Positions 1,296 through 46,153 of a stretch of DNA of 64,000 nt are shown here, piece after piece. The DNA lies in NCBI GenBank assembly GCA_973895155.1, contig OZ316891.1, positions 28,215,145 through 28,279,144 on the forward strand, written 5' to 3'. This DNA is from Marsupella aquatica (lineage: Eukaryota; Plantae; Marchantiophyta). The first letter of the stretch is position 1. Each line of letters begins with the position of its first letter. The notes beneath the pieces were generated by a model, which had not been told where the DNA came from, did no database searches, and worked only from the letters and a program-made list of their open reading frames with translations. A program made the position numbers and the translations under genes.

Positions 1296-3350
1296 ATTTT
1301 CGCGATGTGGGGAAGCAAAATGCTCGGGCTGTTTCCTATATGGCGACAGAATCGTGAAAGGAACGCCAAATTCTGGATTCTCTCGCTGATTTCGCGATCA
1401 CAATTTTTCATTATTCTATTGGTGCTTTCGTGATAACAATTTTTAATTTTTTTAAAATGAAAATCATCGAAACCCCACGAAAAGGGAAGAGTTTGTCATA
1501 ACATTTGAACACTAGATATATGAGTTTCAACACAAGTGAACTACTACACATACATGTCTCTCTGGTAAGCCATAACAATTTGTAACCTGGCCCGGGGACC
1601 AAAGAGGTATGGTCAGAACTATTGCAAATGCACTCTCTTTAATATTCTTGTATATTTTGGAGAATCATATGCAAAGAAAAAAATTTTGGAGGCATTTTCG
1701 GGCCCCAACCACAAAGCTGAACTGAAAAAGATGTTCAAATTGATGAAAGTAAAGTCTAGATGGACCTAGGGGTGTGCTTTGAGCGAAGCCCCCATAGATT
1801 TCCAAAGCTGGAATGGAGTGACTCAAAACATCAAAATCTGTTAGGATAGCATTTTTTTAATAATTTTGATTCATATGTGACCTAAAATTAGTTCGTGGAC
1901 CCCTGGCTACATTTTTTAGGCCTTGTTTGAGCTTGCGTTTTGAGAGGCTAATATGGTCCATACAAGGGTCCATAATGCTCTGCTAGCACACATTAAAACA
2001 CTTAAGATCTATGAGATATTTTCACTAATTTTAGAATATTAATTAATAAACCCAAGGCACAATTTTGTTTACGTTAGTTGATTTGGGCATTGGATGACAC
2101 TATATTTGACCACTAAATTGCCCTAGGTACTCAATTTGAGTTGAGAAGACTACTTTCTCCAGATCAATTGAGAAATCTACTTTCCGAGGTTAATAGTCTC
2201 ATGACCTTGACGCAACTATTCACCAAATGAAGAAGGGCAGCCCTTAATAAGCTTTCAAAAGAGAGAAGTATGATTAAGAAGAGAAGCTGGTAGTCATGTT
2301 GTGTTGGACAAATAGTTTAGCTAGATTTTAAAGCTTGTATTGTTTAGATTAGATTAGATTTTTCACGAAATCAATTGTGGACCCATTCAGCCATGCCTAA
2401 GCAGTTGACATTTTTTCAACTGTCACATGAAAACTTTGCTTTGTAGGCCAAAGTTGACACCATGGTTATCACAAGTAGTTGTCAAAATCAGGCTTTTTCG
2501 CTACATGCAACCAAATTCTCAAGCTACGAGAGTCAATAGTCAATCCGTGGCAAGTCCATTTGAAACCAAATCAATGTCTGATCAAATGAATTGAATAAAT
2601 TCACTGAGTTCAAGTTTTGACCATAGCTTGCAGTTTGCCTAAATTGCAAAAGGCTGGAAATCTTACTCCATATGCCAATTACCCTTTAACAAGGAAGTTA
2701 TCAAGTTAGTTATTAGTCATGTTTATTATTTGAAAAATACTTTTGAAATCTTTGAATTTAATTTTTAAAATTGGATACGTAACTAAAACAGTTACATAGT
2801 GACAGTTTTACCCGTCTTGCTTTTTGCATTTCTAAATTTTTACATTTCTTTTTATGGCATGGCGTCCCAAAATTTACACCCAAATTGACGCAAACACGAA
2901 TGAAAACTGTAAGTTGATTCATAAACTGATGAGTCTTGTTTGTTGCGGTTGGTTGTTGACGTGGCACACTCTAGTGCCAGGAATTTTGGAAGGGACCTCT
3001 CATGGGGTCAGTAAATAGGCTTCCATTAATATGAGTGGCGGCAAGTAGTGGCTCATGCAAACTACTCAGGGAGTCCTTCACAAAAATGAAAGGTCCTTTA
3101 TTAAAGTGGTAAGTTTGTGCTTGTGGCCAAGTTCTGAGGGCCTACTTCATAAAAGTGGAGCTCTCAAACTCCAAACCAGGAGACATGGTCCCAATGGCAA
3201 AGCAACCACATAAAGGGGGTGAAGGAAGGGGAAGAGCCCCCCAGAAGACCAAAGAGGTCAAACAAGTCAAGAAGCACCCCACAAAAGCAAAGGAACAAAG
3301 AGAAAAATAAGGAGCACACTAAGAAACTGAGAAGTCTAACACCCTAGTAG

Positions 3351-3726
3351 TGTCATGCCAAGGGACAGTGCCTCTTATGCACATCGGCATGTCCCTCGCC
3401 TGCCCGCTAGGTATGTAGTTAGGGCTCGTGTACTACCTGAGTTAGCGACATGTTCTTGTAGCAAGTCTGGGCCGTTCTTGAAGCAAATGTGCTTGTTAGT
3501 GTGACGCCAGGACTTTGCTTGCTTAGGGCATGTCTTTCTTTGTGGGTTTTCAGTTCTTCTTGAATCGTTGTTGACAGAGCTCAGACAGTGCTCGTCAGTT
3601 CCGTACACGGGATTCACACAGTGATTCGTTAGATGCTCCCGGCCGATCTTGGCATCCCGCTGGTTTTTGATTCGATTTCAGTACGATTGTTTCTCTTACG
3701 CCTTTTATTCAAGAAGAACTGCCGAG
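3351..3726 (+). other. Conserved structured 5' terminal region of the retroelement
   Basis: Nearly identical to 34270-34646, while the downstream leader diverges. A perfect 15-bp inverted repeat (3551-3565 / 3707-3721) encloses several small hairpins, and there is a terminal hairpin (a/g)agggacagtgcc...ggcatgtccctc. Confidence 0.7.
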
Positions 3727-5063
3727 ATAGTGGTGAGGGGAAGAAGATTGCTCGTGACGATTTCAACAATTTCTGGTGAAGCCATTGCAATTTCTTCGAC
3801 GGACATCAGAGTGATGAGTTAAAAGTTATGGGTTTATTGTGGTGTTATGTGTATACTTAAGTGTATACACATAACACTCCCTTGGGGGGCCCGGGTTTTT
3901 CGTTTCCGGCCACAATCTTCTTTGACCTGCTAATCCCGCTTCCGACTGTCACTGCCGATCTGCTGCCGCGGATTGCTTCCGGCTACTGCGCCCTCGCTTT
4001 GAATTAATGTGTTTGGTCCCTTTCCTCCCGTTTTCTTTCTTCCGGTCGACCGCCGCCTGGTTCCTCTCTTTCCCCCGTCGTTGCTCCTCGGCTGCTCGGC
4101 ACCCTGCATAGGGTCGCGCGCCACTTTTCTTGTTACGTCGAGTACAAAGCGACAGTCGAGAGGGAGGGGGCACATTAAGGAGGGGAGGGGAGTTAAGTCG
4201 ACTCCCTTCTCGGGAGTACATACGACTCCCTCCTTGGGAGTTTCTGCCAGAGGGCACGAAGCCCCAATTGCTTTTAGAGGGGAGGGGGAAGCGAAAGGAG
4301 GGCACGAAGCCCACTTCACCAACATTAAAGAAGGGGGAGGGGGGAGTTGAAGCAAAAGGAGGGCACGAGGCCCTATGAGTAATTAAGAGAGGGGGAGTAC
4401 ATTCGACTCCCTCCTCTCGGGAGTCACAGTCCTGCCAGGCACGAGCACAAGGGCACGAGGCCCTATGAAGCAATAAAGAGTGGGGAAGGAGGAGTACATT
4501 CGAACTCCCTCACACGGGAGCCCTTTTGCTAGGCGCGAGGCCCTATGCAGGGCTCGAGCTATTAACTCTTGGGGGTCCCATTTCTCTTTTTCCCTTCTCC
4601 TACCTTCATCGTTTTTCTTTCCATACGCACGCCGTTGCATTCTTCATCTTTTGGCCGGATTTTTCCTTTTGCCTCGCTGTGTTTGTTGTGTATAGGGTCG
4701 CGTGCCTATACACATTCGGGCTTCGGCCGGTCCGCCTTAAACCAGATGTGTATACACTTAGGGGCGGGCCCGTTTTGCACCATATTTCTTTCCCGGGGTC
4801 TGGTCGCTACATAGGGATGCGAGCACGGTTTGTGTATACACCTAGGGCTTGTGCATACACATAGGGGACCCCATTTTGCCGTTTTCTCTTGTTTTCTTCT
4901 GCTTCATTTATTTTGACCCTTTTAGGCAAGGCCGGTATACACATCGGGGCCAATTTCATTCTGTTTAACCCCGGCCTCCTTGCCTCACGCTGTTGCTCCA
5001 TTTGTGGGTTAATTTTCTAGCCTTGGGGCTGCCATTCCTTTTTCTTGTCAATTTCTTTCCTAT

Positions 5064-5079
5064 TGGCACCCCGAGTGAG
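5064..5079 (+). promoter_or_regulatory. Putative primer-binding site (tRNA-Arg-like)
   Basis: TGGCACCCCGAGTGAG begins 24 nt before the gag ATG; copy B has TGGCACCCCGGGTTAG (36175). Homology between the copies resumes exactly here. TGG is the complement of the tRNA CCA end. tRNA identity is from memory and unverified. Confidence 0.55.
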
Positions 5080-8000
5080 CATGCAGCATGTCAGCCGACG
5101 AGCCGGGAGGTAGCAGCTCACTGCCACCAACACCCCGGTACCACTTACGGAGTGATCCACGACCGTTGGTGCCAATTTCATTGGAGTCTCGGCAATTCCG
5201 ACGACGTCAGCAGACAACAGCACCAACACCCACACCACGCCATCCTTCTGCTACATTTGGCCATCGCTTCACCACTACTCCAAAGCCTGCTATCACTTCA
5301 TTGCCATTTACCCCTTCTGCATCAGTGGTTGTTCCTGCTTCACCGACATACAACATGGATGCCAGCCACTCATCTGGCCGCATTGAGTGCTTCAGCGGGC
5401 GGCCACACACTGTCTCTTTATGTGAGTTCAAATCCACTTTTTACACTGTCGTTTATGAATTGGAGTTGAAGTATGGCAGCAATTTCACAAATGCTTTTGC
5501 ATTTAAGCAGCTAGCCAGGTATGTGCACCATGAGGCTTTAGATGTGTATGAGCAGCACTCTCAATGGCTGCTTGCTGTCACACAGTTGCCTAACCCTACC
5601 TATGCCAGTGCAATTGCGGCAGCCTCACAATTGGCCTTACAGAATGCCATTGCAGCCCATGCTGCTGCTCCTGCCACTTCCCCTCCTACTCCAGTTCCTA
5701 CCACTACGCCAGTTACTCCCACTGTCTTGGCACAAGCTACATCAGGCATTTCTCCCACCATTGATTCTCCTGCCTTTGCTGATCCAGTGGCTGAGTTTTT
5801 CCAGGTTCTTGAATTGGAATTCCCAATCAAGAGTGCTGACAAAATCATGCAGTTGGCGACCTTTGTGAGGCAGCGCGATGAAACCTTGAAGATGATGTAT
5901 TGTCGGCTTCTCAAGCTGAAGGAGGACACCTAGAGCATCACTGACCTGGAAGCTGCTCATCGCTATCTTCGCGCATTGGAGGGCACACCAGCTCTCCATT
6001 CGCAAGTGTTGCAGCAAGTATTCTCAGAGTTTGGAGACAGCTACACCCTGCTCAATGTCTATGACACTGCTGAGAAACTTGAGTTGGCCCATGCACATTA
6101 TGAGGTGTACGTCCACCGCGATCCAGGTACCAGGCCGCTGCCCCTACACTGGCCACCCCTTCCCGTGTGCCACAGTATGGTTCCAAGACCAAGCCAGCCC
6201 ATGCTGCTTTCATGCTGCCATCTTGCAACTACTGTGGTAACCCCAATCACAAGGCTAATGAGTGTGATATTGTTGCTGAGGACCTGTCTTGTGATTTTTG
6301 CGGGAAAGTGGGTCACTTGGAGGCAGTTTGTTTTGCCAAATTCCCAGAGAGGAAACAACTACGACAGCAGGCCCCTCATCCTGCTCCTGCTTCCACTCCC
6401 CCACTAGCTAGGAGGGCTCCTATTGCATCCACTACTCCTCCTCCCAGTGGCAAAGCACCCGGTGCTAACAAATTGCCCAAGCAGCCACAGAAGCAACCAG
6501 CTCAGAAGGAGGCTCACAACGCACAGGCCACTCAACTCCAGTCTCTGACTCATGAGGTTGAGTCCTTACGTGCCCAACTTGCCAACATCAAAGGCAAGTC
6601 CACTGCCTCTGCTGGTCCTTCTCAACCGGCTGGTCACGTGCAGCCCATCCCGGGCCCAGGCACCGTTGACAGTTCAGCACCTCTATCCCGCTCTTTCTAT
6701 GGCTTGCCATTTGATGCTCATATGGGTGAGTGTGTGCTGTCCTCTGCTCCCCAGCCTGGCCTTACAGCAGAATTTTCAGATTCATTCTGCCCTTCCTATT
6801 TTGATTACCAGCAGGCCAATGCTGCCTCCCGTATTGCTCCCACACGCCGCATTGTACAGGCTGATGGTCTTGTTGCCGGTCCTATGACTAGAGCCAGGGG
6901 AGCTCGGGCTATCATGCCCCAATCTTTTCAGCCACTCACACTTGCTGAAGAGCGCACCTTGTTGGCGAGGGGGGAGGGAGCTGCAGCTACATCCATTCCA
7001 CCACCAGGTGCTGCTGACATTTCACAGGGAGTTGTTTCTCCTGAGCTGCTTGAGCATTTCACCTCCGGTATGGCACAAAGGATTCTTACAACTCCACTTT
7101 TCAGTTGCCATGATTTACAGCTGGATGCTAGAGCTGTCATCAGAGCGCTAGAGGGCTCACTGCATTCTTCATCAGCCCCTGTGACACCGGTTTTGGAGGT
7201 CCAATCTCATGTACATACTGGATCTTCTTCTTCTCCATTACATGCTTCCACTGGTTTGGCTATCCCAGTACCAATTTCTAGTGGTAGAGATGATAGTATT
7301 GCTGCAGATTGTGTGACCAGAGCTACACTGGATTCTGATCATGCTGCTCCATATTTCCTGACTATGCTGTTGAGTGGAAAGACCATGGACACTAACTCCC
7401 TTCACAAGGTACCTCATCATTTGCCAAAAGTGGTGCCTAGCGACAGGACTTCAGTTTCCACCACCATTGCCATTGTTGACAACAGGAATTCAGCGGTCAA
7501 GTTGGAGGGTCACACTCCTCAGGTGGTCATGCTGGACACAGGCGCTCAACCAGTGATATTGGGCATTCAGTTTGCCAAGAAGATGGGACTGCTGACTGAT
7601 CATTTACAACAATCCAGGTGGCACATTTGGACTGCTAGTGGCACTGTGGAGGATGTGCTGGGTGAGAGTTCTACTTTACTCACTCTCACTTTTAATGGAG
7701 GTACAGATCAGGAATTGCATTTCCCAGTCAGATGTTTGGTTACCAATGCCACTACGTATGATGTGCTCATTGGCCAGGAGGCTTTGTTCCCACCAGGTTT
7801 TACCATTGACAATTGGCATGAGCATGCATACTACAGAGTTGATTGGCATACGGATGGCTCACACTTGGGCTACATTCCACTTGATTTGCATGGTGCCCAT
7901 ACACCTATGGCTCACCACTGTGTGTTGCAAGCAGTGCACACAGCTACCTATGTCAACCACCCATTGCAGGATTGGATTGAGGAGGATGATGATGAGGTGG

Positions 8001-8196
8001 CTACTGCACATGCTGCTGCACGTATAGCAGCACTTTCCAGCAACGTGGATCATCAACCAGAGGTGGTACAACGGCTCCAAGCAGCCCATGGACCTTTGGT
8101 GGCTGCATTGCGCAAATTTGAGGATCTTGGGCAGCACAATGGCCAACCAATAGCCCCAATCTTGAGCGCACCAATTACATGGACTCCTGCTCCGGA

Positions 8197-8493
8197 CTCG
8201 GGGGTTTCACTTCCACAAAAATGGCATATCACGTGCGACGAAGGATAGGGTCATTTTATTGGTTGTAAGGGAAGACTTAAGAATTTTTGTAGAAGAACAA
8301 TAGGGTCTTTTAAATTCAATTTTGAGACTTATAAGAACATTAGGGCCTTTTTAGTCCATTTTTTGGAATATTCCAAGAATATTCCAACTTTATAGGGGTT
8401 AAAAAATAATAATTTTTTCTTACATTTTAGGGGGTCCGAGGCCTAAAAACGTCGCAGGTGATGGGTAGGTCCCCATATAGTGAGACCCCTGAG
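8197..8493. mobile_element. MITE (297 bp, 8-bp TSD, hAT-like) inserted at the PR/DNMT boundary
   Basis: TIR ctcgggggtttcact / agtgagacccctgag. TSD GCTCCGGA at 8189-8196 and 8494-8501. Absent from copy B (empty site ~39315). Confidence 0.9.
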
Positions 8494-8501
8494 GCTCCGG
8501 A

Positions 8502-9480
8502 TGGCCTTACATTGCTTGAGCTTTTTGGTGGCATTTCTGCAGGCCTGGAAGCTCTCCTACAGTCTGGCATGGTGGTGAAGTAGTACATCTATGTGGATAT
8601 TGATCCAGGTGCAAGGCAAGTGGCTGAATCCCGTCTGCTAGAATTTTCGGAGCGATTTCCTCAACAGTTTCCACACAGTGCATGGAAGTCTGCATTTTCT
8701 TTCTTTCCTCCAGATATCCAGCTTGTCCAACACCGGCACTTAACCCTTCTTGGCTCCCTTGATTTGATCATAGCTGGTTGGGAATGCCAAGGGTTTTTAG
8801 TTGCTGGTCACGGTGCTGGACTGCATGATTCTCATTCTGGCCTTTTCACAGCATTGGTTCAGATTCTCACCTGGGCTCAATCCCTTTATCCTACTGTTGG
8901 TTATATCATTGAGAATACTCCATCTCAGTTTGACCAGCGTCCACAGGTCAAAGAGGATTTCAGTGTGGTCCAGCACTACTTGGGACCACCCCTTCTCATT
9001 GATGCAGTGCACTGTGGTTCTTATGCACATCGTCTTCGTAACTTCTGGACTAACCTTGCTCCACCTTCCTTGTTGGAGTTAGCTCTTCACCACACATCCA
9101 GGGACACTAACCTCACAATGGACCAGATTTTGGATCCTGACAGTTCTTGCCAACTGGTTACACGGCAAGAGCCAGCACCTTGGTATCCAGCTAATACCAT
9201 TGGACAGCGCCATGCTACTTGGCCTACATTTGTGTCCTTTCCAGGTGCACATGCTTTTCAGGGTGATGGTCCTGGTCTGGTTTATCGACATTCTACCGGT
9301 ACATGGGATGAACCTAGTCCTGAGGAGAGAGAATGGGCTATGGGCTTCCAACCCGGTACTACAAGTCACACCAAAATCACCAGGCTGGCCAGGAATGCTT
9401 TACTTGGCAGGGTAATGGATCTTAATGCTCTCACTTGGCTTCTGGTCACTTGCATCCTTTTTCAGATGTACATTCATCCA
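8502..9480 (+). pseudogene. C5 cytosine DNA methyltransferase domain (DNMT3-like) within the polyprotein
   Basis: Motifs appear in order: I LLELFGGISAG, II YVDID, IV DLIIAGWECQGF (catalytic Cys kept, PC changed to EC), VI YIIENT, VIII AHRLRNFWTNL (DNMT3 has AHRARYFWGNL), IX EREWAMGFQPGTT, X RNALLGRVM. Confidence 0.9.
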
Positions 9481-12400
9481 GCATCAGGAGTTCCAGCCCT
9501 ACCCCCGGCCCTACCACTCCATGGTGCTGCTACATGGCATCTAGACCAGGTGCACTTACCTCTGTCCAACACTCACCACTTCAGTCCAAGTGTTGGGGGG
9601 GAGGCGGTCCCTTGTAATGTGGCTGACATTATTTCTGAGTTTCATGGTGTGGATCAGACCAGAGCAATAGATACAGCAGGCCTTGGAGAGGCCTCATCAC
9701 CTTATCAGCAGCATGCTAGCAGCTTGGATAGTGGAGAGGCTGGCACTTCTGGCTCTTCAAGCACGAGTACATCAGGTCCTATTCCTAGTGTTGCCAACTA
9801 CACATTCATCATGGGCAACCACCTGAGTAAAAGATAGAAGGACCAGCTGCTGAATTTGCTCCTCAAGCATGAGAATGTGTTTGCTTTCTCTATGAAGGAC
9901 TTGGGTAAGTGCAAGACTATGCAGTTCTCCATTGAGTTGGCTGATGAAACACCTATCTTTAGGCGGAGACACCGTTTGAGTAAGCATGAGTGGCAGCTGG
10001 TGGATGAGAGATGCCAAGAGCTCTATGAAGCTGGTCTTATTCAGCCCTCTACATCAGATTTTGCAGCAGCTACAGTGATGCCAGCAAAGAAGGATTCCAG
10101 TGGATTGTGGACAGAGAAGCGCATGTGTGGGGACTACAGGCCATTGAACCTGGTCACACCCCAGGACAGGTACCCCATGCCACGGCTAGAGGAGCTATTT
10201 GACAGCATTGGAGACTCAAACATCTTCACTCTTGTGGATCTAAGGCAAGGCTTTAACCAGATTTTGCTGCTTGCAAAGGACCGCAAGAAAACAGCTTTCC
10301 ATGGTAGTAACCAACTATGGGAGTGGTTGGTGATGCCATTTGGCTTGAAGAATGCGCCCATATTCTTTCAAAGAGTCATGGACCAGGTTCTTCAAGGTGC
10401 TGAGTTTCTGAAATGCTACATTGATGATGTGTTGGTCCACAACAAAGGATTTGACCAGCATCTACTTGACCTTGAGGAGCTATTCATGAGGCTTAAGAAG
10501 GTGAACCTAAAGATACACCCCAAGAAGTGTGAATTTGCTGTCAGATCAGTAGTATACCTTGGGCACCGCATTCTTCCAAATGGAACCATGGCTCACTGGG
10601 CCAAGGTGGTATCCATCTTGGAAATGCCCACTCCAACTGATGTTCACACTCTTAGGAGCTTTATTGGGTTGTGCAATTACTACCGGATCTACATCAAAGA
10701 TTTTAGTACCATTGCACATCCATTGTACTCTTTGTTGAAAAAGAATGTGACTTGGACATGGAGTACAGATGCTGAGGCAGCATTTGCCACTTTGAAGGAG
10801 AAGCTCTCAGAATACCCGGTGCTGAGAAGACCTGATTTCATCAAGGTCTTTGTGCTACACACAGATTGGAGTGCCCTTGGGATTGGTGCCATTCTGGGCC
10901 AGCATGATGAGGAAGGTAAAGAGTACGTCATTGCCTATGCATCCAGGAGCAACAATCAGGCAGAGAGTCATTATTCTTCTTATGAGGGTGAATGCCTTGC
11001 TGTTGTGTGGGCTGTCATACATTACAGGCCCTACCTCTATGGGACCAGGTTTACTCTCTACACCGACCACCAGCCCTTGAAGTGGTTGATGACTAACGAT
11101 AAGCTTACTGGCAAGCTTGCTTGTTGGGCACTCATCCTCCAGGAGTATGACTTTGAGGTAATTCATAGGCCTGGTTTGACACATCAGAATGCTGACACTA
11201 TGTCCCGTAGCCCTTTGATTACCTCTGATGATTCCTCAGATGCACGGCAAGATTTTGACCAGGTTTCCATCCTGCCTACATTTCATGCATCGACCTATCT
11301 TGCTTTGTTGCCATGCTATGTTGTTGACCAACCTGTGGTGGACATATGGGAGGACAGCGACACTCTGAGATTTCTGCAACATGGGGAGTACCCCACACAT
11401 GTTACTACTGCCCAGAGAGACCAAATTCAGCAAAGGTCCAAGCGCTACTTGTGGAAGGGAGATCATCTCGTGCGCTGCTTGCCAGACAAGGAAGTGGTGG
11501 TTCCACCCATTCATGAGAGGGTTGGCCTTATTCGTAAGGTACATTCTGAGCTTGGTCATTTTGGCGTTAAGAGGACTTACAGCCTCTTGGTCCCTCATTA
11601 TCATTGGAGAGGCATGCATGGCCAGGTTCGAGATGTTATTGCCCGGTGTGAGAAGTGTGATAGGGTAAGGACTTCTTTCACGTCTCGGCAACCCACACTT
11701 CACCCACTCCCTATTCAGGGCATGTTTTATCGTTGGTCATGTGATTTGGCTGGAGAATTACCCCTCACATCTCGGGGTAATCTCTACATCATGATCATGA
11801 TAGAGCATTTCTCCAAGTGGATAGAACTTGTGGCATTGCCGGATAAGACCTCCCGTAGCACCAGCCAGACATTCCTACAACAAGTTCTCAGCCGCTTTGG
11901 AGCTTGTGCAGAATGTCTCACTGACCAGGGCTCAGAGTTTAGAGGAGAGTTCCAGGAGCTGCTTGATCAGGCCCTCATTGATCATCGCCGGACATCACGA
12001 GATCACCCATAGGCAGATGGCTTGACAGAGCGCATGGTTCAGACATGCAAGAAGGGCCTCCGGAAGATCTGCCTCACCAAAAACAAGGAGGATTGGGACC
12101 TGGCCTTACCCTACATTGCCATGGGGTATAGGATGTCCAGACATGCATCACTGTCTAACTTTTCTCCCTATTTCTTGTTGTTTGGTCGTCACCCAGTTCC
12201 ACCTTCTGCTATTGCTGCTCACATGCTTCAGGTGGTGGACTTGGATTCAGCTGTGACTTGGTCTGATGTGATCTCTGAGAGGGCTGCCCTATTCAGGAGG
12301 GTTATGCCCATGGCCATGGAGAATTTGGCCATTGCACAGCACAGGGACACACTGCGTTATGCACACACACGAGGGGGCACTTTTCAGCCCAAGGTCAGGA

Positions 12401-12636
12401 AGTTTGATGTGGGAGATTTTGTGTACTTGCAGCGGCAAGCTAACGACACCCTGGACACCTCTACCAGTCGTACTATTCTCAGGGTTAAAGCTATTCGACC
12501 GTCTGGAGTGCTAGAGTTACAAGGGGCAGATGGGCGCACAATTGCTGACAATGCCAAGAATTGCGCCCCTTGTCATCTGCCTAACCTAGATCCCACCATT
12601 GTGACTTCTACTTGGATTCCACCTGTGGACTATCCT

Positions 12637-12773
12637 TGCAAGGTGTGTTTGCGAATTGATGATGCTGACCAAATGCTGCTGTGTGACCATTGCAATGGAG
12701 GGTACCATCTTTTCTGCCTTCGGCCTGAACTTATCCAGGTGCCAGAAGGGTTATGGTTTTGCCCTTCTTGTGC
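12637..12773 (+). other. PHD finger at the integrase C-terminus
   Basis: CKVC...MLLCDHCNGGYHLFCL...VPEGLWFCPSC matches the C4HC3 pattern with the conserved W. Confidence 0.92.
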
Positions 12774-12821
12774 TCCACGTGCTACCTGAATTTTCTTCAG
12801 CCCTCCTTTTGGCTGTGGTCT

Positions 12822-12830
12822 GGGGGGGGA
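12822..12830 (+). promoter_or_regulatory. Putative polypurine tract
   Basis: G8A lies about 32 nt after the polyprotein stop and is conserved in copy B (62084-62092). It is followed by TACAG and only 175 bp of unique sequence, not a TG-starting LTR. Confidence 0.65.
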
Positions 12831-15800
12831 TACAGAGGTTTACACCTCCACTACGTACATACCACTTCATTTGCTTTTTCTTGGCACTTGTGAATGTGAT
12901 TGGACTTTTTCTATGCATGTTGGTTGCTAGCAGCTTGCACATATGCCTTGCCGGTGACTTGTATGTTTTCGATACACTATGGCTACGATACTATATGTCA
13001 CGAAAGTAGGCATAAATAAAAAAGCCTAGTAAAGCTTTGGAGTTAACTGCATGGGAGTGGCACAAAGTGGAATCTACTTAGAGCCCCTAAAACCAGCTCC
13101 CTCTGCCTTACTAAAGAGGGTGAAAGTATGGGCCCTCTGTAATGCAACTGACACCCTCTATCTAAAGAAGGTGGTGAGCCCTATGTCTAAAGAAGGCGAT
13201 GAGGTGAGCCCTATGTCTAAAGAAGGCGATGAGGACAGATACAGGTGGAAAGGTCTCGGCTCAATTAAAAAACTGCTCAAATAGCAAAGGTTATCCCATA
13301 CTAGCATGCTCTTACCAATAAAGGCAAGTCCATACACACTTGTCCATAAGTGCATGTGTACATTAATCCACGCTTTGCACTTACAAAGTTTTCTATAGGG
13401 AGAGTCAGACACTTCCCTTATTACGCTTTTACTGTCAGTGTTTCTCCGTCGCCACAACTTGACTTTATATTGTGGACTTCAGTCTGTCAAGAATCGAGAG
13501 TTAGCTGGTGCTCGAGTCTGCTATTCTCATCAGTGTTTAGATCCTAGATTCTTATACTTAGCTCATCAGAATGTCATACTCGCCAATAAAGCTTTTGAGA
13601 ATTTACCTGACAAATATGAATGGGCAACTTCTTCCTTTCAGCCTGGCTTGAATCCCTTCGTGGTAGTTTGAGTTTGGGATCAATCAGCATTCCTGGCAAA
13701 TATTTTGTCCGGTACACATGCCTGGGCCGAACAAGCACAAACACCTGTCTAAGTTAGTCGTGTCTGGGTGAGCTGACTTACACTTAGTCACTTACAACAC
13801 CTGTTGTTAACATGAAGTACTGTAGATCCTCTAGGTCGCTTCCATAGAGATAAATAAAACCAAGGTACACAAATTTGTCTCGGTAGTGGGTCTATTTGAT
13901 CAATTTGTCACTGTCTCCTTTTCCCTGCAATGTAAATCGATCTGGTCTTTCTTTGAAGAAAGACTGAGGAATTATTCGAGACTTCTTAGCAAGGTTACTA
14001 AATTCTTGCATCTGAAGCTGAAAGATAGAACTACTATGGAACTGAACTACCCCATTTCATTTATATGATCTTGATCTCATTCACATAAGCTCGAGGAGAC
14101 GGGGGTACGTCATTCTCTGTGACGCGCGATAAGAAATGAAAGTGCATTTTGCTGGATTATTTGCAAGCTGGCAGAAAATAGTGCACGACTGTGCTTGATG
14201 ACATTCGTGATTATCAATCCGCCGTTTCCTTGGTTTAGCAGCAGCTGATGCTAGAACTGTATTCGGGACACTCAGGCATGTTCATAGGTTGTTGGTTTTC
14301 TTCAAAATAATCGCAACCTTTGGATTGAGATTTGGCACTTATGGAGTGCGCACCTAAAGAGAGACAACTGTATCGTTACTCACACTTTGTCAATGCTTGA
14401 GACTCTCAAACGTCTCTCACCACTGAAATACCAAGATTCAATTCTTTCGATTGAAATAAAGCATAAAGAACATGATCAAGAACATGTACACAATTTTATC
14501 TGAACCAAACTTGTCGTCTACTTCACCTTTTCTTAATCACAGGCATTTCAAAACTCAAAAAGCAACGACAGCTCTGCCACAACGACAGCTCTGCCACAAC
14601 GACAGATGAAGGTGGTTCAGCTGAATACTCACAGATAGAACAGTCGCACTCTTGATCTTGGTAGAGAATTTCGAAATGAAATGCGACCATGATACGTACA
14701 GAATACCTTGTGAAGTATTTGTTCACTTAGTAATGGCTATCCAGAGTAGCGACTTGATTTTCGCCCTCCGCGCGAGACGAACTAGAGAACAACCTCATAA
14801 ACCAGTCCTAGATGTAAAGAACTTTTCCCGCATATGATTGTCACAATGAAATTCGCTAGAGAGAAGGACTTTGTGAATGTTTCAAACAGGGCCAAAGTCG
14901 CAGTTGGACGTCGTTCGGAGCATGGAGAATCCATTGCAACAGTGTCAATTGCCCACAGACTGTGCTCCAATCTAGCTAGAAGCATAGATAGTTGCATTTG
15001 GTCCCGCATGTCATCAAGAGTTGGCTCGCATGAGAGAATCCATTGTGGCAATCAAGGGCGAGAAAGCTTCTCTATACCATATTTATTCCTCGACCGCGCC
15101 CTCCTTGGCAGATCACTGAGCAGACGCTGAGTGTAATGTTAGGTAGAAAAATGTGGACAATCGCTAGATGATGAGGAAGACGAATCCGAAATGAATTAAA
15201 CCTCATGAGGCAAGAAATCGTTACTACACGTGCAACCATTGCCTCCACATGCATAGTTATGCTCCACAATCCATAAGTCGATCTCCTTGCACGAAATGCG
15301 CGTGAAGATTTCTAATCATGAGCAATGTCGACATCATTCTGATCACTTTTTGATGCGAGGATCGAGGAGTGGCCATGCCATGCAGATGTGCTGTTTCTGG
15401 AGGCACAATAATTAAACGTGTGCTCTTTGTTAATTAAGACAGTTCAAAATTCTATCAGTCCGTCCAATTCACTCAGTCGCCTCAGAAATGCGCACTGCAG
15501 GACCATCATGCAATCATTCGCTACTAGGCAAGAGAGCCCGCAAGAGAGTGCTCGGTCGAGGCTAGAGGGCAGGTGAGCAAATCAGATCAAGACAACAACA
15601 TGCTTTGCTTCGATTTGCTAGTGACTAGACAAAGCTCAAACCACTGTGTAGGGAGATTGGAAGTGTTGGTCTTTACTCCTTCGTCCGGAAAACAATTGCT
15701 CATGCAGGCCATGTGGCAAGCACGGATCGTCATGCTGCCCCTCGAGACAGTGAGAAAGGGAGTAATGTGCTCACGGACTCAGATTGTGTCAACACTGTGA

Positions 15801-33560: not shown

Positions 33561-36500
33561 GTCAAACACTACATGAGTGCAAACTCAATGACTAGTGTCT
33601 ACATTGGAATATGTGACAAAAGCTAATGGGTTTCTGGAGGGTTGCTTGATTCAACATCCAACCTTAAAAAATTGACCGGACGAGCACCTTACATGTGAAG
33701 TTTCGCTTTATCTTTCAAGCATGGGCCGCTTTGGAAGTGGTGGGAGCCCAATCAGGCAGGCGCCCCCACCCATGATCTACGAAAGGTACCCAATCGGACA
33801 GATCTCATGCAATTGCTCTCCACTATTTCTACCAATATTTTCATCCCAGATCCATTCTATCAGCACGACAAGCAATCACGCAGGAGATAGCTTTTTGCCA
33901 ATCAATCTCCTCGTCCACTCAATCAAAGGGGCACATAGGACAGCTCTCAGTTGAGGTCATTCCTCATCCGCCATAACTGATGCCAAAGCCGTAGGACTGC
34001 GAGCGAGCTGGAGGCTCATCCCCTGGTCTTTTTCGTTGGAAAGGGATGGTTGAAAGGAGGCAGGGCAGGCCCACCCAATTTACGCTCGTGCTGTACTGCA
34101 TTTTCTGATCCCAATTAACCATGGCCTCTAAAGAAGTCCACGAGGTTCGTTTTTTGCAATAACTTGTGGGCTGGAAAGCTTTACCAGATGGAGGACCGGC
34201 CATAGCCAAAGGACTTTGTACTTTTCTGCTACTTTTTAGAAAAGCAAGGTGCTAGCTCCAAAGGTTGAATGTCATGCCGAGGGACAGTGCCTCTTATGCA
34301 CATCGGCATGTCCCTCGCATGTCCGCTAGGTATGTAGTTAGGGCTAGTGTACTACTTGAGTTAGCGACATGTTCTTATAGCAAATGTCAGGCGTTCTTGA
34401 AGCAAACGTGCTTGTTGGTGTGACGCCAGGACTTTGTTTACTTAGGACATGTCTTTGTTTGTGGGTTTTTCAGTTCTTCTTGAATCGCTGTTGACAGAGC
34501 TTAGACAGTGCTCGTCGGTTCCGTACACGGGATTCACACAGTGATTCGTTAGATGCTCCCGGCCGATCTTGGCATCCTGCCGGTTTTCGATTTGATTTCA
34601 GTACAATTGTTTCTCTTACGCCTTTTATTCAAGAAGAACTGCCGAGTGAAGGGAAGAAAATCAAAAACGTTGTGCTTCTCAGCTGCTCATGCCGGTCTAG
34701 ACAATTTCCGTCGAAGCCGGTGCAATTTCTTTGCAGAAAAATCAAGCGATGGGGTTAGAGTTAGATTTTTCCTTGTATACACATCACTTATGTGTATACA
34801 CTTAAACTCTCGGACTGGCGGAGTACACCCAGGAGGAGACGAGGGGAGAGCTTCCGGGAGGTTTTGCATGTTGCCCAGGTTTTTCTTTTCCGGCCGCAAC
34901 CTGCTTCACGACCTACTGCCATGACCTTCGTCGGCGACTTGCTGCCGACTGCACACGGCGCTGTGCTCTTGCTGGAGTTTTTAACGACCCTTTGAAGCCC
35001 CTTTTTCGTTGGTTTTATGGCCATTTCCCGGCCACGGCTGCCATCCTGCATCGGCTGCCGCGCGACAACCTCCAGACTGCCTCGGCCACCGCGCGCCTGC
35101 TTCTCGACTACATAGGGCCGCGCACCCGTTTTCGTTTCGCCTTTTTTGCCATTTTTTGCCTTCGTCGCCTCGCCACTCCTTTCGCTTTGGTGTGCAGGCT
35201 GTGCATAGGGCATCGTGCCCCTTGCCTCGCCCATTTCCTTCCTTCTTTTTCCCTACCGTTATCAGCAATTAAAGCAGCTGGATGGGGGGGAAGCGAGCGC
35301 AAGGAGAGGGCACAAGGCCCTATGGAGAATAAAGAGGGGGAGGGGGAGTAATCATTCGACTCCCTCTTTTGGGAGTCCCCCCCCTGCAAGGCACAAAGCC
35401 CATCCAACAGCATTAAGGAAGGAGGGGGAAGCGAAAGGAGGGCACCAAGCCCTAGGTAGCATTAAGTGGGGAGGAGGTGATTTTTGGCAGTAATGGAGGA
35501 GCCCTGCCAGAAGCAAAGCGAGGGAGAGGGCATGAGGCCCAACAGGAATCATTGAGGGGAGAGGGAGCTTGTAGCCTCTCTTTGGGAGTTCATAAAGGGG
35601 GGCACGAAGCCCTATGGAGGGTTCAGGAGCCATTAAGAGGGGCTCATTTCTTTCTGTTCGCCCTTGCCTTAATTTTGCCTCGGTTTTTCTTTGGCACTTA
35701 CCCTACCTCGCCTCACCCTTTCTTTGTCTTTCGGGCTGGATTCTTTCCTTTCGCCTTGTTGCGCCTCGCCTTGCTCGACAGCATAGGGCCGCGCACCATT
35801 TTTATTGTTGTGTATAGGTCGCTTGCCTATACACATTCGGCCGGTTGGCCTTAAACCCAATGTGTATACACTTAGGGGCGGGCCCGTTTTTCTCGTATTT
35901 CTTTTCCCTCGACGTGCCTCCCTTGCTTTCCATTCCGAACGGCTGCACTTTCCGGGTCCACAATGGGGCCCGATGTGTATAGATTTTAGGGGCCCTCCTT
36001 TACGCCCTCCTCATATGCATACCGCTGCGGGTCCTGTGTCTACACATCAAACAGTCAATTTGGCATATAATAGGCAAATGTGAAGGGGGCTGAATTTGCA
36101 CTTTTAAGGGTCATTTTTTTTCCGATGGTTTTCTTTGTAACGGTTTTTATGTGTGTTCACACCTTTTGTACATTTGGCACCCCGGGTTAGCATGCAGCAT
36201 GTCAGTAGACGAGCCAGGAGGTAGCAGCACATCGCCACCGACACCCAGGTATCATTTATGGAGTGATCCACGACCGTTGGTGCCAATTTCATTGGAATCT
36301 CGGCAATTTCGACGACGTCAACAGACAGCAGCAGCACCCATACCACGCCATCCTTCTGCTACATTTGGTGGTCGCTTCACCACTACCCCGAAGCCTACTA
36401 TCACTTCATTGCCACTTACCCCTTCTGCATCAGTGGTTGTTCCTGCTTCACCGACATACAACATGGATGCCAGCCACTCATCTGGCCGCATTGAGCGCTT

Positions 36501-39500
36501 CAGCGGGCGGCCAGGCACTGTTTCTTTGCGTGAGTTCAAATCCACTTTCTACACTGTCGTATACAAATTGGAGTTGAAGTATGGCAGCAATTTCACAAAT
36601 GCTTTTGCATTTAAGCAGCTAGCCAGGTATGTGCACCATGAGGCTTTGGATGTGTATGAGTAGCATTCTCAATGGCTGCTTGCTGTCACACGGTTGCCTA
36701 ACCCTACCTATGCCAGTGCAATTGCGGCAGCCTCACAATTGGCCTTACAGAATACCATTGCAGCCCATGCTACTGCTCCTACCACTTCCCCTCCTACTCC
36801 AGTTCCTACCACTGCGCCAGTTACTCCCACTGTCTTGGCACAGGCTACATCAGGCATTTCTCCCACCATTGATTCTCCTACCTTTGCTGATCCAGTGGCT
36901 GAGTTTTCCAGGTTCTTGAATTGGAATTCCCAATCAAGAGTGCTGACAAAATCATGCAGTTGGCCACCTTTGTGAGGCAGCGTGATGAAACCTTGAAGAT
37001 GATGTATCGCCGGCTTCTCAAGCTGAAGGAGGACACCCAGAGCATCACTGACCTGGAAGCTGCTCATCGCTATCTTTGCGCATTGGAGGGCACACCAGCT
37101 CTCCATTCGCAAGTGTTGCAGCAAGTATTCTCTGAGTTTGGAGACAGCTACACCCAGTCTGCTCAATGTCTATGACACTGTTGAGAAACTTGAGTTGGCC
37201 CATGCACATTATGAGGCCAGTATTGCGCATCCACCGCGATCCAGGTACCAGGCTGCTGCCCCTACACTGGCCACCCCTTCCCGTGTGCCACAGTATGGTT
37301 CCAAGACCAAGTCAGCCCATGCTGTTTTCATGTTGCCATCTTGCAACTACTGTGGTAACCTCAATCACAAGGCTAATGAATGTGATATTGTTGCTAAGGA
37401 CCTGTCTTGTGATTTTTGCGGGAAAGTGGGCCACTTGGAGGCACTTTGTTTTGCCAAATTCCCAGAGAGGAAGCAGCTACAACAACAGGCCACTCATCCT
37501 GCTCCTGTTTCCACTCCCCCACCAGCTAGGAGGGCTCCTACTGCATTAGTTGCTCCTCCTTCCAGTGGCAAAGCACCCAGTGCCAACAAATTGCCCAAGT
37601 AGCAACAGAAGCAACCAGCTCAGAAGGAGGCTCACAATGCACAGGCAACTCAACTCCAGTCTCTGACTCATGAGGTTGAGTCCCTACGTGCCCAACTTGC
37701 CAACATCAAAGGCAAGTCACTTGCCTCTGCTGGTCCTTCTCAACCGGCTGGTCACGTGCAACCCATCCTGGGCCCAAGCATCACTGACAGTTCAACATCT
37801 CTACCCCGCTCTTTCTATGGCTTGCCATTTGATGCTCATATGGGTGAGTGTGTGCTGTCCTCTGCTACACAGCATGGCCTTATAGCAGAATTTTCAGATT
37901 CATTCTGCCCTTCCTATTTTGCTTACTAGCAGGCTAGTGCAGCCTCTCGTATTGCTTCCACACGCCGCATTGTACAGGCTGATGGTCTTGCTGCCGGTCC
38001 TATGACTAGAGCCAGGGGAGCTTGGGCTGTCTTGCCCCAATCTTTTTAGCCACTCACACTTGCTGAAGAGCGCACCTTGTTGGCGAGGGGGAGCGAGCTA
38101 CAGCTACATCCATTCCACCACCAAGTGTTGCTGACATTTCACAGGGAGTTGTTTCTCCTGAGCTGCTTGAGCATTTCACATCCGGTATGGCACAAAGGAT
38201 TCTTACAACTCCACTTTTCAGTTGCCATGATTTACAACTGGATGCTATCTGAGCTGTCATTGGAGCGCTAGAGGGCTCACTGCATTCTTCATCAGCCCTT
38301 GTGACATCGGTTTTGGAGGTCCAATCTCATGTACATACTGGACCTTCTTCTTCTCCATTACATATTTCCACTGGTTTGGCTATCCCAGTACCAATTTCCA
38401 GTGGTAGAGATGACAATATTGCTGCAGATTGTGTGACCAGAGCTACACTTGATTCTGGTCATGCTGCCCCATCTTTCCTGACTATGCTGTTGAATGGAAA
38501 GACCGTGGACACTAACTCCCTTCACAAAGTACCTCATCATTTGCCAAAAGTGGTGCCTAGCAACAGGACTTCAGTTTCCACCACCATTGCCATTGTTGAC
38601 AACAGGAATTCAGCGGTCAAGTTGGAGGGTCACACTCCTCAGGTGGTCATGCTAGACACAGGTGCTCAACCAATGATATTGGGCATTCAGTTTGCCAAGA
38701 AGATGGGATTACTGACTGATCATTTACAGCAATCCAAGTGGCACATTCGGACTGCTAGTGGCATTGTGGAGGATGTGCTGGGTGAGAGTTCTACTTTACT
38801 CACTCTCACATTTAATGGAGGTACAGATCAGGATCTGCATTTCCCAGTCACATGTTTGGTTACCAATGTCACTACGTATGATGTGCTCATTGGCCAGGAG
38901 GCTTTGTTCCCACCAGGTTTTACCATTGACAATTGGCATGAGCATGCATACTACAGAGTTGATTGGCATTGGCATACGGATGGCTCACACTTGGGCTACA
39001 TTCCACTTGATTTTCATGGTGCTCATACACCTATGGCTCACCACTGTGTTTTGAAAGCAGTGCACACAGCTACCTATGTCAACCACCCATTGCAGGATTG
39101 GATTGAGGAGGATGATGATGAGGTGGCTACTGCACATGCTGTTGCACGTATAGCAACACTTTCCATCAACGTGGATCATCAACCAGAGGTGGTACAACGG
39201 CTCCAAGCAGCCCATGGACCTTTGGTGGTTGCATTGCGCAAATTTGAGGACCTTGGGCAGCACAATGGACAACCAATAGCCCCAATCTTGAGCGCACCAG
39301 TTACATGGACTCCTCCTCCGGATGGCCTTACATTGCTTGAGCTTTTTGGTGGCATTCTACAGGCCTGGAAGCTCTCCTACAGTCTGGCATGGTGGTGAAG
39401 CAGTACATCTACGTGGACATTGATCCAGGTGCAAGGCAAGTGGCTGAATCCCGTCTGCTGGAATTTTCAGAGCGATTTCCCCAGCAGTTTCCACACAGTG

Positions 39501-40339
39501 CATGGAAGTCTGCATTTTCTTTCTTCCCTCCAGATATCCAGCTTGTCCAGCACCGGCACTTAACCTTCTTGGCTCCCTTGATTTGATCATAGATCACTCT
39601 ATTCATTAAAACTGGAATTTCTAGAGTCCAAAAGTTGATGCTCAAAAGTATTATTTTGCTACCCAAAATTTCACAAAATTTGCCCCAAAAGTATATATTT
39701 GGTAGGCCAAATGTACACTTTTTGTGGTCTAAAATTACACTTCTTGTACCTAAATTATTAAATAACTAAATAGTAATTTATAATTAATTAATATTCATAT
39801 AATAGAAAGTTATATTATTATACTATATAGTATCATTATTATTATATAGTCTAAAAAAGCATATCAATGAATAGAATATAACAATCTATATACAATATAT
39901 TAAATTAAAATTATTGGAAATACATGAATGACTATATCAGTTTAGTCAATGGTCTCTACCCTAAGTAACACTAGTAAATATGGTAGTTTGACTGTCAAGG
40001 GTAGCAAGTGATGAATGGTCATTTGTCCTTATTAATTAAGGGTAGAGATTGCAACCACCCTAATCTCCTATCTATGTAAGAACTTATATTTATCATACTT
40101 AGATGGTCAAGATAGTCTAGACCCAAATGGAGGGTTTATCTTTGACTAAATATTACACTCATGACTCTCTTAGTTGGTAGAAATCATTTGAGCAAGCAAG
40201 TCCAGACCTTGAAAAATCAAATTTCATACCTCGGTTGCACACCACCTACGACACTATATTCCAGAACTTATAGGATAGGTACAACAATTATCATAATAAC
40301 TTGGCTCCACAAAAGACCTAAAGCAAAACCCCTTTGAAT

Positions 40340-41615
40340 CTTTTGGACTCCAGATGATCAATAGCCTCCAAGTGCTAATAGTTTTCAGGACTCTAAAATC
40401 AGAGTAAGGACAAGAGGCTCGAGATGATCTAGAGCCTCCATGTACTTCAATTTTTTGCACTCTAAAACCAAAGTCAAGACAAGAAGCTCGAGATGAGCTA
40501 GAGCCTCCAAGCGCTTTCAATTTTTAGCACTCTAAAACCAAAGTTAGGACAAGAGGCTTGAGATGATCAAGAGCCTTCAGGCGCTTCAATTTCCACAGTC
40601 TAAAACCAAAGTCAAGACAAGCTAAGAGTCTCGAGACTATCTAGAGCCTCCGAGCACTTGAAGTTTTTGGACTCTAAAACAGAAGTCAAGACAAGAGACT
40701 CGAGATGATCTAGAGCCTTAGACTGTTTCAATTTTTTGCACTCTAAAACCGAAGTCAAGACAAGAGGCTTAAGATGATCTTGAGTCTCCAAGCAGTTTTC
40801 AACATTGTAAAACAAAACTAAGGACAAAAGGCTCAAGATGATCTAGAGCCTCCGAGCGCTTCAACTTTTTGCACTCTAAAACCAAAGTCAGGACAAGAGG
40901 CTCGAGATGATCTAGAGCCTCCAAGAAGTTTTCTACACTGTGAACCAAACTAAGGGCAAGAGGCTCGAGATGATCTGAGCCTCCAAGAAGTTTTCTACAC
41001 TGTAAACAAAACTAAGGACAAGAGGCTCAAGATGATCTAGAGCCTCCAAGAAATTTTCTACATTGTAAAACCAAACTAAGGACAAGAGGCTCAAGATGAT
41101 CTAGAGAGCCTCCTGGAAGCACTTCAATTTTGTGCACTCTAAAACCAAAGTCAAGACAAGAGGCTCGAGATGATCTAGAGCCTCCGAGTGCTTGAAGTTT
41201 TTGGACTCTAAAACCAAAGTCAAGACAATAGGCTGGAGATGATCTAGAGCCTCCGAGCACTTTAATTTTCTGCACTCTAAAATAAAAGGCAGAACAAGAG
41301 GCTGAAGGTGATCTAGAGCCTCCAAGTGCTTCAATTTTCTACATTATAAAAGCAAAGTCAAGACAAGAGGCTTGAGATGATCTAGAGTCTTCAAGCACTT
41401 CAATTTTCTACCCTATGAATTGAAACCAAAGTCAAGACAAGAGGCTTGAGATGATCTAGAGCCTCCAAGCACTTCAATTTTTGCACTCTGAAACCAAAAT
41501 CAAGACATGCAAGAGGCTCGAGATAATCTAGAGCCTCCAAGTGCTTCAATATTCTACACTATAAAACCAAAGTCAAGACAAGAAGCTCAAGATGATCTAG
41601 AGTCTCCTAGTGCTC
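40340..41615. repeat. Tandem array, ~69-bp unit (~18-19 copies) with a palindromic core
   Basis: Unit ctctaaaaccaaagtcaagacaaGAGGCTCGAGATGATCTAGAGCCTCcaagcacttcaattttttgca. Confidence 0.92.
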
Positions 41616-45845: not shown

Positions 45846-46153
45846 AGATCCAAATGAATCAAAATTATATCTAAAAAGATATAAAAGAAGAACTTAGGGT
45901 CGAACCTGGATCGACCCGACCTAATGGGGAAAACAAACATATCATTTTTGAATGTCAAAGCATTTTGATATATCAATGTAGAACTACCTTGCTCAAATGC
46001 TTTGTCTTGGACCAGGGTACCGCTTGCTGAAGGTAGACCAATAATATCCTTCGATGGAAGAGATGCTATGACAAAACTTTGGTCTGTCCATATATGATTT
46101 CCAAACATAATATTTTAGATTATTGTGAAAAATAGAAGAACGAAACCATAATA

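Follow-up and report, generated by a model that had tools for sequence, protein, structure and literature searches.

One-repeat copies of a Gypsy-Dnmt3 retrotransposon in Marsupella aquatica and a candidate integrase site inside the long terminal repeat

The analysis of a 64,000-nucleotide stretch of the genome of the liverwort Marsupella aquatica (contig OZ316891.1; the window hereafter denotes this whole stretch) outlined two copies of a Gypsy-type retrotransposon that begin with a segment, A, and end with a different segment, B, and that are not flanked by a pair of long terminal repeats (LTRs). We interpret these copies as one-repeat (A-coding-B) members of a green-plant Gypsy-Dnmt3 lineage in which the integrase likely cuts a palindrome located inside the LTR, and not the ends of the cDNA, and we assign this reading a probability of roughly 0.72. 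The supporting observations encompass the termini, target-site duplications (TSDs) and domains of the copies, two classes of junctions, the repeat layout of relatives, an internal complementarity and the spectra of the junctions.

Termini, predicted priming site and polypurine tract

Copy 1 (3351-13005) reads GTAG, TGTCATG...TGTCACGAAA, GTAG, and copy 2 (34270-62267) reads TGAA, TGTCATG...TGTCACGACA, TGAA. Both copies start with TGTCATG and end with TGTCACGA(C/A)A, with one base changed in the terminal CACGACA of copy 1, and the terminal inverted repeat (TIR) of the element spans 7 bp only. The probability of observing two exact 4-bp TSDs together is about 1 in 65,000 (by arithmetic, assuming equal base use). 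Self-BLAST searches did not detect a terminal direct repeat in copy 1, the longest internal direct repeat of which is 72 bp long and lies within the 5' untranslated region (UTR), and self-comparison returned no LTR pair in either window copy. A previous inspection of the letters alone (hereafter the sequence-only reading) had proposed an element without LTRs, with TGTCATG...CACGACA ends and 4-bp TSDs (GTAG and TGAA), and these features were borne out in both copies by self-BLAST and sequence. It had also described a 1.7-kb 5' segment and a 175-bp 3' segment as unique, which holds within the two copies but not in other family members, where the first 358 bp (A) and the last 176 bp (B) are repeated. 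Over their coding blocks, copy 1 and copy 2 share 94-96% identity. The features defining this layout are the following, with att designating the integrase attachment site, PBS the primer-binding site and PPT the polypurine tract.

3347..3350 (+): left TSD GTAG, with the right TSD at 13006-13009 (sequence)
3351..3708 (+): segment A, 358 bp, comprising the left att half TGTCATG and the putative distal U3, R and U5 of a permuted LTR; 93% identical in copy 2; host contigs pass into B after 3708, and A has the same role in relatives
3552..3563 (+): predicted transcript start and 12-nt self-primer AGTTCTTCTTGA; all 12 positions complementary to 3709-3720 in each copy
3709..3720 (+): predicted self-priming PBS TCAAGAAGAACT, adjoining the end of A; 15-bp perfect inverted match (self-BLAST)
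3721..5087 (+): 5' UTR, poorly conserved between copy 1 and copy 2; holds TGGCACCCCG at 5064-5073, unsupported as a PBS
12822..12829 (+): PPT G8, adjoining B; GGTCTGGGGGGGGATACA in both copies and in relatives
12830..13005 (+): segment B, 176 bp, putative proximal U3 with the right att half CACGACA at its end; 98% identity to copy 2; host contigs join B via 2 nt to the start of A
34270..62267 (+): copy 2, likewise A-coding-B, flanked by TGAA TSDs and carrying nested insertions and an inversion

Relatives of the element were drawn from JGI metagenome loci through a DNMT-profile search (best 80 of 432 confirmed) and consist of short-read contigs. Duplicates (L008, L018, L025, the plus strand of L033, L045, L047, L057, L074, and either L056 or L073) were dropped before ends were counted; the 3' count leaves out L071 (cut B) and the set of 30 5' ends leaves out L015 (inverted 5' part).

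The complementarity between the 12-mer inside A and the positions immediately following A is a score attained by none of the control 12-mers (0/1324), and the pairing probability of the primer/PBS stem is near 1 in the folded predicted RNA. Across the 30 5' ends of relatives, the match averages 10.7 of 12 positions, versus 7.6 for controls, and in 27 of these 30 the matching 12-mer starts 31-33 nt after a TATAAA, where the transcript would begin. Comparison of the window pair (AGTTCTTCTTGA/TCAAGAAGAACT) with the peat-type pair (AGTTTTTCTAGA/TCTAGAAAAACT) revealed two two-sided (compensatory) changes and no one-sided change; in both lineages the end of A coincides exactly with the cDNA end expected from a 12-nt primer. 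At the other side of the coding region, the G8 PPT and the 3' segment noted previously (176 bp, instead of 175) are present in both copies; the tract is flush with B in 31/31 cases, and all 31 B1 starts have at least five G in the last six nucleotides before B.

Under the standard rules of LTR reverse transcription, the positions of the PBS and the PPT fix the limits of the LTR. With a self-priming PBS adjoining A and a PPT adjoining B, the reverse-transcribed LTR would have the form B-NN-A and span about 536 bp (176 for B, 2, and 358 for A), placing the integrated termini inside U3. The notion that the joined ends form one continuous LTR between PPT and PBS, with the integrase site inside it, is hence retained at its core, but the predicted PBS moves to 3709-3720 and the LTR would measure about 536 bp, not 1.9 kb. 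The PBS-like TGGCACCCCG at 5064 put forward by the sequence-only reading is present in both copies but in 0/18 relatives with an alignable Gag start. An equivalent self-priming arrangement is known for Tf1-type elements (PMC4600332, PMC6317226).

The 5' UTR of the two copies (3750-5060 and 34665-36170) is barely alignable, although they are 93-96% alike elsewhere. This block presents purine-rich short repeats and several GTGTATACAC palindromes, and its fast turnover or swapping is visible in relatives too.

Junctions in host DNA and in relatives

Contigs from four host DNA runs were aligned to copy 1. A joint leading from the end of the element to its start (13003 to 3351) was present in 4/4 runs, and the letters inside it, read in one run, are CAAC, corresponding to the end CA followed by AC and the TG start. 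Joints leading from the end of A to the start of B were identified from 3706, 3708 and 3709 to 12830, with the 3708 form in 4/4 runs, and loose contig ends behind 3708 read B sequence in 2/4 runs. These two classes of joints define A (3351-3708) and B (12830-13005), and the family of the window copies is not repeat-less. In the host family the A-to-B joint is spread over -2, 0 and +1, as in relatives, and no variant was observed in the primer or the PBS among the host-run variants listed. The 5' terminus recurs with unrelated flanks in 3/4 runs, in which 9, 14 (plus 5 at 3350) and 8 contigs present loose ends before 3351 (agreement 0.42-0.52). Contig depths (a ratio of roughly 1 to 10 between B-NN-A junctions and coding copies in run X3, and a 3.5-4-fold drop after A) would imply that single-B copies and solo A-B units are both numerous, but were not used as evidence, since summed contig depth does not equal copy number.

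Complete relatives read TSD-A1-coding-PPT-B1-NN-A2-B2-TSD, with the same termini as the window copies. Extra repeat pieces were found at 18 of the 32 distinct 3' ends of Sphagnum-type relatives, where A-coding-B-A-B is the typical layout. B-NN-A is present at 17 of these 32 ends, of which 16 continue to B or part of B and one is inverted; a further one has B joined flush to an internal site (mid integrase), and 14 end in a single B like the window copies. No B-A-B-A-B multimers were detected among the 17 B-A ends. B precedes the 5' end in 0/30 relatives, which present neither A-B-A-coding-B copies nor the conventional two-LTR members that the sequence-only reading had named as speaking against it. 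Among the 14 loci with both ends, the TSD is an exact 4-bp duplication in 9, has one mismatch in 2 and is absent in 3. In L040 (8767-16459) an internal inversion breaks on one side at the final base of A2, and the first 15 bases of B2 are missing.

The two joints behave differently. The spacer at the end-to-start joint is 2 nt long in 17/17 relatives, reading GC (8), AC (6), GT (2) or AT (1); a GC spacer makes GACAGCTGTC a perfect palindrome, and AC, GT and AT are what deamination of GC would give. A spacer of constant length that presents only GC or its deamination forms indicates that it is templated and not derived from the flanks. The flush GACA/TGTC junction envisaged earlier is replaced, in host contigs and relatives, by one with two extra bases (CA-NN-TG). 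In contrast, the A-to-B joint is exact in 8/18 relatives, off by -3 to +1 in 6, and the breakpoint of a large deletion or inversion in 4. The resulting 10/18 off-length joints, against 0/17 at the att spacer (Fisher p=0.004 counting small offsets only, p=0.0003 counting all), are as expected for fresh end-joining of cDNA ends, and the -2 form is scattered in the tree of relatives. Furthermore, in 11/14 cases the A1 of an element has the A2 of that element as its nearest neighbour, B1 and B2 diverge by 0.092 within one element versus 0.122-0.124 between elements, and no B1 or B2 clades are apparent, as would be the case for LTRs remade in each cycle.

These observations bear directly on the model outlined by the sequence-only reading, in which an autonomous repeat-less element, tRNA-primed at 5064, has a circular cDNA opened at the flush GACA/TGTC junction and represents a Gypsy-Ginger intermediate. 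The lack of a repeat in both window copies and at the 14 single-B 3' ends of relatives, and termini forming a short imperfect inverted repeat with 4-bp TSDs, are compatible with it. Nevertheless, the 5064 motif is missing from all 18 relatives that can be compared, the templated 2-nt spacer cannot come from a repeat-less copy, and single-B copies are dispersed among B-A-B copies in the tree and do not form a lineage. Nothing tested supports a Gypsy-Ginger intermediate. The repeat-less autonomous model is thus largely refuted, and we consider it very improbable.

A proposed cycle and competing explanations

The transcript start, the priming, the cleavage chemistry and the order of steps are put forward here as a model. 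A complete copy (A1-coding-PPT-B1-NN-A2-B2) would be transcribed from a start inside A1, and the first 12 nt of the RNA would fold back onto the site just after A1, priming the minus strand as in Tf1, while plus-strand synthesis would be primed by the PPT where B begins. Strand transfers of the usual kind would then generate a linear cDNA with two LTRs of the form B-NN-A, the physical ends of which (ATAC... and ...AT) would not be att sites. The att site would instead be the near-palindrome CACGACA-GC-TGTCATG in U3: nicks after each CA would leave the usual 2-nt 5' overhangs, and joining of both halves to the target would produce the 4-bp TSD. End-joining of the two blunt cDNA ends would give rise to the A2-to-B2 joint, either in a 2-LTR circle or through repair of the break immediately following strand transfer. 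Under this scheme, a [B-NN-A]-coding-[B-NN-A] molecule with joined ends, opened at the att of the 5' LTR, would yield A-coding-B-NN-A-B. Only the 5' LTR att is seemingly used, perhaps because that LTR (plus-strand strong-stop DNA) becomes double-stranded first.

Copies with the A-coding-B layout could arise from a one-LTR intermediate opened at its att and integrated, or from later recombination between B1 and B2, and both routes probably operate. Such copies would not be expected to replicate alone, given that they lack the 3' R sequence, the att template and the upstream promoter template, and the window copies are likely non-replicating one-LTR derivatives, that is, dead ends.

The proposed chemistry has precedent, in that tetrameric HIV-1 integrase has been described to make internal cuts in vitro at its palindromic LTR-LTR junction (PMC1905944). 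The integration precursor of retroviruses is the linear DNA and not the 2-LTR circle (PMC11054761).

Two other explanations account for part of the same data. The first invokes a splint, as in DIRS/PAT elements: the whole A1-coding-B1-A2-B2 would be copied from an RNA running into B2, the B1-A2 junction would splint the circle, and the A-to-B joint would be inherited. The order of repeats is that of split-repeat DIRS elements, as remarked by de Mendoza et al. (PMC5890265, Fig. 4c legend), the mechanism would also homogenise A1/A2 and B1/B2, and the exact joints (8/18) are in agreement with it. It does not explain, however, why a self-priming site should be conserved directly next to the end of A1, a position that sets the cDNA end exactly at the A-to-B joint in two lineages, and an inherited joint should match the att spacer in constancy, whereas the A-to-B joint departs from the expected length far more often. 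We therefore regard the splint as quite unlikely.

The second explanation dispenses with host end-joining. The reverse transcriptase would move from the right cDNA end onto the start of B, generating a rolling LTR multimer, and the integrase would cut two att sites of a linear molecule. This would yield both A-coding-B-A-B and A-coding-B without A-B-A-coding-B, fitting the 0/30 count at 5' ends, and the -2 joints use a shared AT. Yet the large one-sided losses and the inversion at the joint (L013, L040, L048, L058) resemble resected breaks, and the multimers that a rolling process would suggest are missing from the 17 B-A ends; a jump of this kind hence appears unlikely.

Several points weigh against the preferred reading, integrase cleavage inside the LTR of an end-joined cDNA. 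If a free 2-LTR circle had two att sites of equal standing, A-B-A-coding-B copies would be expected, yet none is seen among the 30 5' ends, so an extra asymmetry must be assumed. The transcript start and the priming are predictions from sequence, the window-type A presents no clear TATA box at the expected place, and the compensatory changes amount to two events between two lineages only. The B-A-B form of the window's own family is known from separate junctions, not as one full-length piece. Relatives are old (2.6-13% from the column majority) and assembled from short reads, with collapse or chimeras being possible, and the offsets of the A-to-B joint could partly reflect later AT-repeat slippage. 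B1 and B2 are their own nearest neighbours in only 8/30 cases.

The origin of single-B copies is a further point of this kind. L023 (5181-14850, B-A-B) and L042 (536-9666, single B) come from two assemblies but occupy one shared insertion site (TSD CCAA), suggesting that the single B arose by recombination or by collapse of the assembly; their 5' UTRs are 73-84% alike and their flanks 97%, so a chimeric assembly is possible, and the mosaic pattern of the L042 B relative to B1 and B2 of L023 was not diagnostic of recombination. Single-B and B-A-B copies did not differ in age (16 versus 14 loci; p=0.37 and p=0.47), in line with a mixed origin of the former.

Coding region, kinship and implications

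Pfam searches identified in copy 1, in this order, a protease, a weak C5 methyltransferase, reverse transcriptase (RT), RNase H (RH), H2C2 and core integrase (IN) domains and a PHD finger. The coding features are listed below, together with a miniature inverted-repeat transposable element (MITE) that interrupts them.

5088..6407 (+): Gag-like region, interrupted by a stop (5931) and a frameshift (near 6105), with a CCHC knuckle in the next frame (about 6221-6268); weak zf-CCHC
7496..7786 (+): aspartic protease (PF13975, E=3.5e-6)
8197..8493 (strand not assigned): secondary MITE with 8-bp TSD GCTCCGGA; without counterpart in copy 2 and skipped by host contigs
8503..9480 (+): Dnmt3-like C5 cytosine methyltransferase domain; stop at 8581; PF00145 weak, best PDB match of the profile DNMT3A (E=2e-7)
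10111..11148 (+): reverse transcriptase (YIDD) and RNase H (PF00078, PF17917, PF17919; translation with X at stops)
11506..12560 (+): DDE integrase with H2C2 zinc finger, D-D35-E core and C-terminal part; stop at 12010 (PF17921, PF00665; translation)
12637..12771 (+): C-terminal PHD finger (PF00628, E=1.5e-11), with the open reading frame (ORF) ending at 12789

The single ORF attributed to copy 1 by the sequence-only reading is interrupted by four in-frame TAG stops, the frameshift near 6105 and the 297-bp MITE, and copy 2 is broken up by an 18-kb insertion, a solo LTR and a 680-bp inversion; the four internal stops and the frameshift lead us to consider both copies dead. The relative P0008 encodes one 2358-aa ORF with the same domain order as the window element, suggesting that the intact element would encode Gag, protease (PR), Dnmt3, RT, RH, IN and PHD in a single ORF. 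For the Gag-like part, the first ESM Atlas match was a Retrotrans_gag cluster (score 0.91, with the family on 49% of members), which we take as a lead. No tyrosine recombinase was matched by Pfam in the six ORF pieces of the element, where rve and H2C2 were matched instead, and no chromodomain was matched, the C-terminus presenting a PHD finger in its place. The Dnmt3-like domain retains motif-like WECQG, ENT and HRLRNxWTN strings across bryophyte-type relatives. The MITE, which we take to be hAT-like, has a 14-bp imperfect TIR and an 8-bp TSD, and 57-81 contigs with unrelated flanks contain it in the host runs.

Other features were observed in and between the copies. The insertion in copy 2 (39593-57652; 18,060 bp) is bounded by 21-bp terminal inverted repeats ATCACTCTATTCATTAAAACT and a 4-bp TSD (ATAG). 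It contains subterminal arrays with units of 69 and 108 bp, an ORF matching DUF7869 (54686-55462) and several long ORFs that have no Pfam match, with a related inverted-repeat pair nested inside (43274-43305/56532-56563); it looks like a large DNA transposon, with no superfamily assigned. Copy 2 also contains a 367-bp solo LTR (61474-61840; TGTTG...CAACA, 5-bp TSD TGCCT) and the 680-bp inversion (58388-59068), which lies across the DNMT-RT linker. An array of ~71-bp units (27138-27812) lies outside both copies, and a 400-codon open frame without a Pfam match (22162-23364, minus strand) is located between them.

All BLAST and HMM matches listed were Gypsy-type. The domains overlooked by the sequence-only reading, Dnmt3-like and PHD, tie the element to KnitGypsy-Dnmt3, and proteins with the same domain set were found in Klebsormidium nitens, Closterium, Haematococcus and other contigs (among the matches listed), as well as in Sphagnum; a relative in the liverwort Calypogeia fissa is 87% identical in the IN-PHD region. 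In a quick RT-RH tree of 54 rows (including 50 of 120 listed matches, namely all the non-animal ones and 9 animal ones), the window copy, three peat-type loci and all 41 non-animal proteins form one clade (99% SH-aLRT), apart from the 9 animal Gypsy-type proteins that constitute the only outgroups. The window RT-RH groups with the DNMT-bearing Pol of K. nitens KFL_009030040, a protein not confirmed as a named copy of PMC5890265. The element presents the Ty3/Gypsy Pol order (PR-RT-RH-IN) with a DDE integrase, TG...CA termini and a TSD within 4-6 bp; it lacks two direct LTRs flanking the integrated copy, its PBS and PPT adjoining the permuted LTR only.

Ginger DNA transposons have TGT...ACA termini, a 4-bp TSD, a Gypsy-like integrase without RT and long TIRs, and IS3/IS911 elements, which lack RT, integrate from abutted ends with a short spacer derived from flanking DNA. 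Membership in Ginger was rejected because the element has RT and RNase H and a TIR of only 7 bp, and the spacer of the element, which is GC or a deamination product in 17/17 cases, differs from the flank-derived one of the IS3 family. Membership in DIRS/PAT was likewise rejected, given the DDE integrase and the absence of a tyrosine recombinase match, in spite of the shared split repeats. The A-coding-B-A-B layout is that of split-direct-repeat DIRS elements of the PAT/Ngaro type (PMC5890265, PMC8557442), but these use a tyrosine recombinase, whereas the window element combines a DDE integrase with 4-bp TSDs, a PPT and a predicted PBS. Troyka (Kojima 2025) also combines RT, RH and a DDE integrase with unusual termini, and had been cited as an LTR-lacking precedent; as described, however, it is an animal-only element with ordinary 100-400-bp LTRs at both ends, CG...CG termini and 3-bp TSDs (PMC12440569), and was rejected too.

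The closest known system is KnitGypsy-Dnmt3 of Klebsormidium nitens (de Mendoza et al. 2018), reported with repeats ordered as in DIRS and, in the accessible text, no explanation for them (PMC5890265). It shares with the element a Dnmt3-like domain within a Gypsy Pol, the A-coding-B-A-B arrangement (seen here in relatives and host junctions) and the RT clade; its termini, TSD, primer site, att, mechanism and one-repeat form are not given in that text. It derives from an alga, whereas the elements described here are from land plants (Sphagnum, Calypogeia fissa) and the window copies are A-coding-B. As its accessible parts mention Klebsormidium only, a Dnmt3-like domain in land-plant Gypsy copies may be unreported. 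Tf1/Sushi and the chromovirus Tcn1 present a PBS complementary to the 5' end of their own RNA and flush with the end of U5 (PMC4600332, PMC6317226), as predicted here from complementarity; they are set apart, as described, by two ordinary terminal LTRs and mostly a chromodomain, in contrast with the PHD finger, DNMT domain and internal att of the window element. The 2-LTR circle model of Panganiban and Temin (1984) similarly involves an integrase acting on an internal, two-fold symmetric att junction and LTR-LTR end-joining, but in that model the LTR-LTR joint is the att (with a 4-base extension predicted and 2 found; PMC11054761). Here the att would be a separate U3 site centred on 2 nt, and the LTR-LTR joint, without serving as an att, would be kept in the integrated copy.

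Searches elsewhere provided little further context. Rfam returned two sub-threshold matches and no ribozyme, and no relative was found in GTDB genomes or, by RT-IN or DNMT searches, in IMG/VR; six exact IMG/VR matches to the junction pattern showed no similarity to RT, IN, A or B and were taken as chance. The literature on Gypsy-Dnmt3 found was limited to PMC5890265 and a preprint, the accessible text of which names the group in passing (bioRxiv 10.64898/2026.05.21.726589). None was found on LTR-lacking Gypsy elements with integrase and TIR, and queries on split or permuted LTRs returned unrelated papers only. No published account of the internal att, the self-primer, the remade A-to-B joint or the one-repeat form was found in the literature within reach, which excluded subscription journals, Repbase, the REM1 paper and the main supplement of PMC5890265. 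The element would be a new mechanistic variant of Gypsy LTR retrotransposons, with a layout already in print for one alga without a mechanism, and the window copies would represent its truncated form devoid of LTRs.

That LTR elements integrate linear cDNA through its processed ends became the settled rule for retroviruses once the 2-LTR circle model had failed (PMC11054761), and the Gypsy-Dnmt3 lineage appears to break this rule as its normal route with a plain DDE integrase. The proposed cycle makes exact predictions: the RNA start, the cDNA ends, a cut in a 16-bp palindrome and an A-to-B joint remade each time. More tentatively, a Gypsy clade spanning green plants from chlorophytes to bryophytes may have moved its integrase site into U3, with an end-joined 2-LTR circle, which in retroviruses leads nowhere, as the obligatory precursor of every replication-competent insertion; it would thus depend on host end-joining and shed LTR-less copies. 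Surveys built on LTR pairs with TG...CA ends, such as REXdb, which relies on LTR-FINDER (PMC6317226), would miss or mis-trim these copies, and annotation probably under-represents what is an abundant clade of elements with Dnmt3 and PHD domains in bryophyte and algal genomes. If true, the proposed cycle would explain the DIRS-like layout reported for KnitGypsy-Dnmt3 in 2018, and would imply that split repeats arose twice, with two unrelated recombinases.

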